From: a virus | Lineage: Duplodnaviria > Heunggongvirae > Uroviricota > Caudoviricetes | Direction: 5' to 3' (one strand) | Virus record (IMG/VR): IMGVR_UViG_2874968258_000006 | DNA length: 41,592 nucleotides | Shown: positions 24,712-27,700 of the stretch, piece by piece | How positions within the stretch are numbered: position 1 is the first letter of the stretch | Layout: each line of letters opens with the position of its first letter | Position numbers: made by a program

Positions 24712-27700
24712 TAACCGCTGATTTACCCGGCGCAGTCTCTCCTGCGCCGGTGTATTAACCTATCTCCTGTAACGCATGTCTCTGGCGTTCGACGATATTG
24801 GTCCACAAATTGTCTTTATCGTCAGTCCACAAATTAATCAGCAAGGCAAAAAAGCGTTCTGCTGCCGGAGAAAGCACGGCATCTTTGCGGCGAATAATCC
24901 CCAATGTCCGACGTATAACGGGTTCCACCAGTGGAATACCAATAATCGAAGAATAGGGCGCATGGGGCATTGCCAGACCAGGAAGCGCCGAAATCCCCAG
25001 TCCCGCCTCTACCAGTCCTAATGACGTCGAAAGATGACGCACTTCGTAAAACCAGTCCAGCTTCCAGGGCTTGTCGGCCAGCTGTTGTTCTATCAACAGT
25101 CGGTTGCCGCTGGAGGAGCGTACGCCAATCATTTTGTAACCCACTAACTCCTGCCATTCTACAAGCTGCTTTTTGGCCAATGGATGGTCACGCCGACAGG
25201 CCAGCACGAACGGCTCGTTGACCAGTGGGGTAAAATCAATGGATGAATTTGTGACGTTGTTCATGTTTATGCCAAAGTCTGATTCGTTACACAGCACCGA
25301 TTCCATGCAATTATTCGTGCCTTGTTCCAGAATCCGCACTTTAATATTGGGATACAGCTCATTAAATTTACCGATTGCCAGCGGTAAAAAATAAAATACT
25401 GCGGTCGGAATACACGCTAACGTCACCATACCACGATGATAAGCATTCATATCACGAATATTAAAAAGCGTTTCATCGAATTTCTTTATTAATTCCCGCG
25501 CCTCCGGGAGCAACCTTTTTCCTGCTTTTGTTAACGTAACCTTGCGAGTTGTACGCTCAAATAGTTGAATATGTAAATCTTCCTCCATCTTTTTTATTCT
25601 TCGCGTTAATGCAGGTTGCGTAATATTGAGTAATTTAGCGGCATTGTTAAACGAACTGGACTCTGCCAGTATGACAAATGCCTTCATACTTGATAATTCA
25701 TGCTTCATTATTACTCCGGAAAATGGAAGCGACGATTTTGGGTGGCTGGCCGTTAAAAATTTTAACTGCATTTAGCCAACTTAAATTAATGAAAAAATGT
25801 TATTAATCGTTGAGCTAAAGTCATTAGAGATGCTTTGCCCTTAATGTAACCATATCGCAATAAGTTATGTTTTTAAATTGAGGGCATTATTATGAAAAAA
25901 ATACCCTGGGTAATGACTCCAACTTATTGATAGTGTTTTATGTTCAGATAATGCCCGATGGCTTTGTCATGCAGCTCCACCGATTTTGAGAACGACAGCG
26001 ACTTCCGTCCCAGCCGTGCCAGGTGCTGCCTCAGATTCAGGTTATGCCGCTCAATTCGCTGCGTATATCGCTTGCTGATTACGTGCAGCTTTCCCTTCAG
26101 GCGGGATTCATACAGCGGCCAGCCATCCGTCATCCATATCACCACGTCAAAGGGTGACAGCAGGCTCATAAGACGCCCCAGCGTCGCCATAGTGCGTTCA
26201 CCGAATACGTGCGCAACAACCGTCTTCCGGAGACTGTCATACGCGTAAAACAGCCAGCGCTGGCGCGATTTAGCCCCGACATAGCCCCACTGTTCGTCCA
26301 TTTCCGCGCAGACGATGACGTCACTGCCCGGCTGTATGCGCGAGGTTACCGACTGCGGCCTGAGTTTTTTAAGTGACGTAAAATCGTGTTGAGGCCAACG
26401 CCCATAATGCGTGCAGTTGCCCGGCATCCAACGCCATTCATGGCCATATCAATGATTTTCTGGTGCGTACCGGGTTAAGAAGCGGTGTAAGTGAACTGCA
26501 GTTGCCATGTTTTACGGCAGTGAGAGCAGAGATAGCGCTGATGTCCGGCAGTGCTTTTGCCGTTACGCACCACCCCGTCAGTAGCTGAACAGGAGGGACA
26601 GCTGATAGAAACAGAAGCCACTGGAGCACCTCAAAAACACCATCATACACTAAATCAGTAAGTTGGCAGCATCACCCAAAAAAGGCACTATTGCCTGGTC
26701 TATTCTCTCTTCTCATAATACGTCCGGAAATATGGATAAACTTAAAATTAAGTTTGATTCATTAGCCTCTCACGATATTACCTTTGTTGGTATTGTACAG
26801 ACCGCTAAAGCGTCCGGAATGGAACGTTTCCCGCTGCCGTATGTGCTGACCAACTGCCATAACTCACTCTGCGCCGTCGGCGGCACCATTAACGGTGATG
26901 ACCATGTTTTTGGTTTATCGGCAGCTCAGCGTTATGGCGGTATTTTTGTGCCTCCGCATATTGCGGTCATCCATCAATATATGCGTGAGATGATGGCAGG
27001 CGGGGGCAAAATGATCCTCGGGTCAGACAGCCACACCCGTTACGGTGCATTAGGGACAATGGCAGTCGGTGAGGGTGGCGGTGAGTTGGTAAAACAGCTG
27101 CTTAATGACACCTGGGATATCGACTATCCGGGCGTGGTTGCGGTGCATCTGACCGGAAAACCTGCGCCGTATGTGGGGCCACAGGATGTGGCGCTGGCTA
27201 TCATTGGCGCGGTGTTCAAAAACGGTTACGTCAAAAACAAAGTCATGGAGTTCGTTGGACCGGGCGTTAGCGCGCTCTCTACCGATTTCCGTAACAGCGT
27301 TGACGTGATGACCACGGAAACCACCTGTTTAAGCTCCGTCTGGCAAACTGATGAAGAAGTGCATAACTGGCTGGCGCTGCACGGTCGCGGCCAGGATTAC
27401 TGCCAGCTTAACCCTCAACCGATGGCGTACTACGATGGCTGCATCAGCGTTGATTTAAGCGCCATCAAACCAATGATTGCGCTGCCGTTCCACCCGAGCA
27501 ACGTGTATGAAATCGACACACTGAACCAGAACCTGACCGACATTCTGCGTGAGATTGAAATTGAGTCCGAACGCGTGGCGCACGGTAAAGCCAAACTCTC
27601 GCTGCTGGATAAAGTGGAAAATGGTCGCCTGAAAGTGCAGCAGGGGATTATCGCGGGCTGTTCTGGCGGTAACTACGAAAACGTCATCGCGGCGGCGAAT

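Follow-up and report, generated by a model that had tools for sequence, protein, structure and literature searches.

The question that this locus raises is what becomes of an IS1 copy whose transposase frame has been interrupted, and whether such a copy can still be moved by its relatives. The window (the whole stretch of 41,592 nucleotides that was analysed) contains two full-length IS1 copies in opposite orientations, designated A and B. The original prediction held that, in copy B, a single C-to-T change creates TAA at codon 49 of insA, that this also removes the InsAB' fusion transposase, and that the copy is non-autonomous and depends on other IS1 copies for transposition. Here, we argue that copy B is very probably a full-length Shigella sonnei IS1 that was inactivated by this TAA and that persists as a non-autonomous fossil at one locus. 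The features concerned are the following:

25909–26676, minus strand: IS1 copy B, 768 bp, full length and defective (768-bp alignment with copy A, 3 differences).
26654–26676, minus strand: IRL of copy B, intact, carrying the IS1 promoter; exact match to GGTGATGCTGCCAACTTACTGAT.
25909–25931, minus strand: IRR of copy B, intact, the same as in copy A to the last base (...ATCAATAAGTTGGAGTCATTACC).
26475–26621, minus strand: truncated insA of 48 codons plus TAA (from the ORF list), encoding the zinc-ribbon domain only.
26475–26477, minus strand: nonsense codon TAA, codon 49 (tta on the plus strand); the change, C to T on the coding strand, affects window position 26477 (IS1 nt 200).
26346–26474, minus strand: untranslated remainder of insA, codons 50–91 plus stop, the same sequence as in copy A; it encodes the helix-turn-helix (HTH) in an intact copy.
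26364–26372, minus strand: A6C frameshift motif TTAAAAAAC, intact, downstream of the stop; IS1 nt 305–313 in both copies.
25924–26427, minus strand: insB frame, open (ORF list), with V156A (V221A in InsAB'); Pfam DDE_Tnp_IS1, E=4e-77.
22544–23311, plus strand: IS1 copy A, the intact comparison copy, inverted relative to B; 91-aa insA and 167-aa insB both open.

Positions 26346–26621 correspond to the exact 276-nt insA footprint (91 codons and a stop) of a minus-strand IS1. Codon 49 of insA in copy A is CAA (Gln), within an open frame of 91 aa, and K-12 IS1A likewise carries a C at nt 200, so that the comparison with both copies bears out the predicted C-to-T change. Across 768 bp, copies A and B differ at three positions: nt 91 (T in A, A in B; synonymous), nt 200 (C in A, T in B; CAA to TAA) and nt 716 (window 25961; T in A, C in B), the last of which results in InsB V156A, equivalent to V221A in InsAB'. 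At nt 91 (window 22634 in copy A), the A of copy B is shared with K-12 IS1A and with all E. coli IS1 copies compared; the synonymous T of copy A may be a marker of an S. sonnei IS1 sub-lineage.

Copy B has the architecture of the IS1 family. It comprises ~768 bp between imperfect ~23-bp terminal inverted repeats (GGTGATGCTGCCAACTTACTGAT / GGTAATGACTCCAACTTATTGAT), and both ends are included in its 768-bp alignments with copy A and K-12 IS1A. The canonical IRL 23-mer has exactly two matches in the window, one per IS1 copy, and copy B shows no difference from copy A in its ends, in the A6C motif, or in nt 1–90, which contain the promoter region. Its insA and insB' frames overlap and are joined by a −1 frameshift at A6C, giving a conceptual fusion of 232 aa. 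Three Pfam families match: PF03811 (E=4.7e-22) in the 48-aa product, PF12759 (E=2e-18) in the in-frame segment downstream of the stop, and PF03400 (E=4e-77) in InsB. The HTH and DDE parts of copy B are encoded yet unreachable by translation. An autonomous IS1 requires an open frame from the insA start to the insB' end, and in copy B this frame is broken by the TAA at codon 49; the two transposase-binding ends, which an element mobilisable in trans requires, are both intact. No direct target duplication of 8–9 bp was found at the flanks of copy B (AATACCCTG and CAAAAAAGG).

InsAB' is the sole IS1 transposase and its production depends on the frameshift, while both the zinc finger and the helix-turn-helix are needed for binding of the inverted repeats (PMC12428005; PMC12903888). 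Both IS1 products are translated from the insA start, with the −1 frameshift for InsAB' taking place at codons 84–86. Given this shared start and a frameshift site downstream of the stop, both the InsA repressor and InsAB' would therefore be abolished. The conceptual −1 frameshift translation agrees with the predicted loss of InsAB': it is open over 232 aa in copy A and meets a stop at residue 49, upstream of A6C, in copy B. In the intact InsA of copy A, Pfam places Zn_ribbon_InsA at residues 1–36 and HTH_Tnp_IS1 at residues 43–88. The 48-aa product of copy B retains Zn_ribbon_InsA at residues 1–36 (E=4.7e-22) and has no Pfam match to HTH_Tnp_IS1, as the stop falls 6 residues into this domain. 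The C-to-T transition at IS1 nt 200, by turning insA codon 49 from CAA (Gln) into TAA, would thus inactivate the element, and the sole product left would be a zinc-ribbon peptide of 48 residues that has no helix-turn-helix for DNA binding. From the sequence and the literature, we infer that copy B makes neither repressor nor transposase. More speculatively, the 48-residue zinc-ribbon peptide could be made and interfere with InsA or InsAB' function.

A look-up of the InsB variant of copy B led to eight independent assemblies of the ybhD/ybhJ locus, among them CP000038.1 (which we take to be the S. sonnei Ss046 chromosome), CP151292.1, CP044191.1 and CP041511.1. Compared with the window, these assemblies are 99.95–100% identical over 5.5 kb. 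All eight carry T at nt 200 (TAA), and TAA, A91, C716 and the flanks are alike in 8/8. With the locus matched at this level, the window is therefore S. sonnei chromosome and the mutation is inherited: the TAA in copy B is real and no sequencing error. The original prediction would have fallen had resequencing given CAA at codon 49, and the eight independent assemblies, including CP000038.1, all show TAA.

To place this allele among other IS1 copies, we used a 35-mer centred on IS1 nt 200 (TAA form TTCACTTACACCGCTTCTTAACCCGGTACGCACCA), for which megablast finds exact matches only. Among 5,426 complete E. coli genomes, the CAA form is present at no fewer than 58,510 places in 4,314 genomes, versus 6 places for the TAA form, one in each of 6 genomes. 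With CAA also in copy A and K-12 IS1A, the T is therefore derived. The six E. coli TAA places trace to three loci, independent of one another and with different IS1 backgrounds; four strains, three of which are avian isolates from China, have one of these loci in common, and all six copies are called pseudogenes with an internal stop by PGAP. The TAA allele is also present in 2 plasmids. A 36-mer of the TAA form had no match in any metagenome contig of the metagenome scan. Neither this 36-mer nor the IS1/ybhJ junction had a match in the GTDB representative genomes, which is explained by the lack of a separate S. sonnei representative in that set. The C-to-T change at nt 200 is a rare recurrent transition that never amplifies.

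Protein databases give a misleading picture of this allele. In the protein collection, 1,748 blocks list the 48-aa 'InsA' product. Of ten places shown, nine are scaffolds broken inside codon 49 with the wild-type C, where the sequence reads …GCTTCTC[A] and then passes into runs of N (at about 3140–3147 of the nine loci), leaving a partial protein identical to the nonsense product. Since these scaffolds break at a wild-type codon 49, the 1,748-block count is unusable for nonsense alleles. We therefore caution that 48-aa 'InsA' database entries are mostly assembly-gap artefacts rather than nonsense alleles.

Whether copy B has moved can be followed with its two private markers. The InsB V156A variant occurs in 25 contigs, at one place each and with the same neighbouring genes in 25/25 (8 places shown, 17 counted as similar to these); at least five of these contigs have the size of a chromosome. 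In the complete genome CP151292.1, the called 48-aa gene is present a single time. With both markers, no extra copies with the same lesion were found at other loci among the contigs covered, a single-copy status that holds for called-protein look-ups of 24 index blocks each, which covered a limited set of contigs. TAA daughters that predate V156A would be missed by the InsB look-up, yet they would be visible in the 48-aa InsA look-up of CP151292.1.

With its inverted repeats, promoter end and frameshift motif intact, copy B could therefore still serve as a substrate if transposase is provided in trans. In principle, InsAB' from the many other genomic IS1 copies could move it; in practice, copy B would seem to be a fossil that is fixed at one locus and passed on vertically in the S. 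sonnei assemblies examined. InsAB' acts for the most part in cis, with a distal IS1 being mobilised ~25-fold less than the transposase's own element and a trans effect noticeable only at strongly raised transposase levels (PMC12903888). The predicted lack of autonomy thus stands, as the frame is broken at codon 49 while both ends are intact and the element has not been deleted. Its predicted dependence on other IS1 copies for transposition holds in part: the intact ends make such movement possible, but none is evident, the markers being single-copy in each contig covered. Over this set of contigs, copy B appears not to have been mobilised in trans.

Four other readings of copy B have to be weighed against this one. 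The idea that faulty sequencing or assembly of a highly repetitive element produced the TAA, with CAA as the true codon, is invited by the multicopy nature of IS1, in which repeat collapse is able to yield false variants, and by the many draft assemblies that are broken within codon 49 itself. It is nevertheless extremely improbable, as the same T at nt 200 of the same copy recurs in eight independent assemblies that span ~20 years, five of them chromosome-sized, and in all eight it is linked to the private C716 and to identical flanks. If the stop is real, some autonomous activity might be left through stop-codon readthrough or through translational restart at Met59 or Met61, the latter yielding an N-terminally truncated InsA/InsAB' that keeps the helix-turn-helix and DDE domains. 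An in-frame, ATG-started ORF does lie past the stop (26346–26447, minus strand; HTH_Tnp_IS1, E=2e-18), and neither the A6C site nor the insB frame is damaged. However, the sequence upstream of these ATGs, CACCAGAAAATCATTGAT, has no Shine–Dalgarno-like run of purines, the look-ups of contigs gave no daughter copies, and TAA is the most efficient enterobacterial stop codon. A restart product would moreover be devoid of the zinc ribbon, which is needed together with the HTH for inverted-repeat binding (PMC12428005; PMC12903888), and we consider residual activity very unlikely.

Active mobilisation in trans, by InsAB' of other IS1 copies and with daughters elsewhere in S. sonnei, is unlikely as well. 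Besides the two intact inverted repeats of copy B, it could draw on the very large and recently active IS1 population of S. sonnei, in which IS1 is the most abundant IS and has expanded recently (PMC7373316), and on the finding that overproduced InsAB' is able to mobilise otherwise immobile IS1 and mini-IS1 in trans (PMC12903888). Yet at native transposase levels trans activity is negligible (PMC12903888), each private marker has a single place in every contig covered, and no E. coli genome has more than one copy of the TAA allele. As for selection, it has to be supposed either that a dead copy stabilises the pgl–ybhD neighbourhood or that the 48-residue peptide is regulatory; the zinc-ribbon domain of the peptide is indeed complete and the allele is fixed, being present in every S. 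sonnei assembly seen. But fixation is expected for any neutral change older than a young clonal lineage, one dead copy among >100 IS1 copies alters little, and the same mutation occurs sporadically in E. coli without spread, which makes a selected inactivation hardly credible. A non-autonomous fossil at a single locus is the reading that we retain.

The flanks of copy B give an indication of how it arrived. Its neighbours are:

24755–25908, minus strand: ybhD (24755–25771), the ybhD–ybhH intergenic region and ~8 codons at the start of ybhH, bordering on the IRR of copy B (from the K-12 alignment).
26677–28843, plus strand: ybhJ, with the first 94 nt missing, bordering on the IRL of copy B (K-12 locus 9598–13347 corresponds to window 26676–30425; K-12 ybhJ starts at locus 9504).

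On the IRR side, K-12 locus 4584–6784 aligns to window 23716–25916, which covers pgl, ybhD and ~25 nt at the start of ybhH (the K-12 ybhH start is at locus 6760); on the IRL side, window 26676–30425 covers ybhJ from nt 95 and ybhC. Copy B thus stands in place of 2.8 kb of K-12 sequence, namely ybhH from about codon 9, ybhI and the first 94 nt of ybhJ, and its two junctions lie in window 25900–25916 and 26676–26700. An informative counterpart is found in E. coli PSS-11 (AP027694.1; locus 4001–4770), where an IS1 has the identical IRL junction in ybhJ, an 8-bp duplication (CTTTTTTG), an intact ybhH–ybhI and CAA at codon 49. The PSS-11 structure shows the simple insertion form, and it shows that this ybhJ target was hit twice, independently. 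A common origin of the S. sonnei and PSS-11 ybhJ copies was considered and rejected, as they differ at 11 positions and the PSS-11 copy has an IS1B-type pattern.

Copy B would first have inserted in the 5' end of ybhJ, after which a 2.8-kb deletion on the IRR side would have removed ybhH, ybhI and the start of ybhJ. The absence of a target duplication is explained by this deletion, with which one flank was lost. The nonsense mutation would postdate both events: an adjacent deletion needs transposase acting on copy B, and the order of insertion and deletion followed by the nonsense mutation is therefore the most likely one.

Copies A and B (window 22544–26676) are inverted and bracket pgl–ybhD, a segment of 2,597 bp, which gives them the look of a composite transposon. 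A Tn9-like composite transposon of A and B was rejected, as pgl–ybhD lies in K-12 order and orientation beside ybhJ–ybhC; the outer flanks (GACGAATGA and CAAAAAAGG) also differ, without any flanking duplication. An inversion between A and B as the cause of the missing target duplications was rejected too, since the flanks are unmatched in reverse complement and pgl–ybhD has the K-12 orientation.

Beyond copy A, K-12 homology starts 3 nt before the pgl start codon (window 23312–23718), and upstream of pgl lies a 5' fragment of a prophage pin-type DNA invertase. With this fragment upstream, pgl has therefore lost its native upstream region. The same pin–pgl junction, without IS1, with ybhH–ybhJ intact and beside an ipaHb prophage, is present in 'E. 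coli' FDAARGOS_944 (CP065613.1), and the junction is also present in FDAARGOS_943 (CP065615.1). Window 28867–29061, between ybhJ and ybhC, contains two overlapping direct repeats of ~100 bp (93% identical), which are present in K-12 too and are probably of the REP/BIME type. Between ybhC and ybhB, at the att-lambda position, a 10.6-kb insert (window 30426–41013) represents a decayed prophage with IS911, a tyrosine-recombinase remnant, an AntA-type antirepressor, IS600, tail-fibre genes and, at 38771–40534 on the minus strand, an ipaH-family E3 ligase gene. The other end of the window (1–22543) is a decayed lambdoid prophage, truncated by IS1 copy A, in which the following were recognised:

1–2033: two abutting partial copies of IS600, with a further fragment at 2463–2754 and a full copy at 6480–7745.
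8122–8808: QueH-like gene of the lambdoid prophage.
10533–11207: Q-like antiterminator of the lambdoid prophage.
About 11468–12700: IS911, in the lambdoid prophage region.
13474–14379: IS2 orfB, in the lambdoid prophage region.
17183–18694: large terminase of the lambdoid prophage.
Up to 22528: portal-like and head genes of the lambdoid prophage.

Copy B is an ordinary example of IS1 decay. Annotation pipelines already deal with such features, marking automatically the IS copies with internal stops that are commonplace in Shigella and E. coli genomes. At the ybhD/ybhJ junction, the two linked SNPs of copy B, T at nt 200 and C at nt 716, provide a locus-specific marker of the S. sonnei lineage, and the copy lends small, population-level support to the cis preference of the IS1 transposase. 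We tentatively speculate that IS1 transposition in nature might be essentially strictly cis-acting, with the dead copy B serving as a natural experiment. If so, this would follow from a copy with perfect ends and no transposase of its own that left zero daughters amid well over 100 IS1 copies expanding over the last few centuries.

Among known systems, copy B most resembles IS1 of the IS1A/IS1R type (E. coli K-12, plasmid R100), with which it shares the 768-bp length, the canonical IRL and IRR, the overlapping insA/insB' frames, the TTAAAAAAC motif, and the Zn_ribbon_InsA and DDE_Tnp_IS1 Pfam matches. Only five positions differ from K-12 IS1A (IS1 nt 127, 200, 262, 265 and 716). Unlike IS1A/IS1R, copy B has a nonsense codon at insA codon 49, the private InsB V156A and no target-site duplication. 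The local rearrangement resembles an IS1 adjacent deletion, in that the IRL keeps its ybhJ junction while 2.8 kb beside the IRR is gone and no target duplication is left. IS1-mediated adjacent deletions are of a classical type, exemplified by the gal/chl deletions, and the S. sonnei arrangement is consistent with the classical outcome of such an event; recombination between two former IS1 copies is also possible, a mechanism that the sequence does not distinguish from intramolecular transposition. The same C-to-T change at nt 200, again in a single copy per genome, characterises the E. coli IS1 copies annotated by PGAP as 'programmed frameshift; internal stop' (for example, NZ_CP116923.1, NZ_CP101514.1 and NZ_CP032078.1). 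These differ from copy B in their loci and in their IS1 backgrounds (7–11 further differences), and are therefore independent recurrences, unrelated to the S. sonnei copy. Finally, copy B is comparable to mini-IS1 and to the 'non-consensus', immobile K-12 IS1B, C, D and F, which have usable ends and are moved only in trans (PMC12428005, PMC12903888). IS1B, C, D and F have open frames and their immobility is unexplained, whereas that of copy B is attributable to its nonsense mutation.
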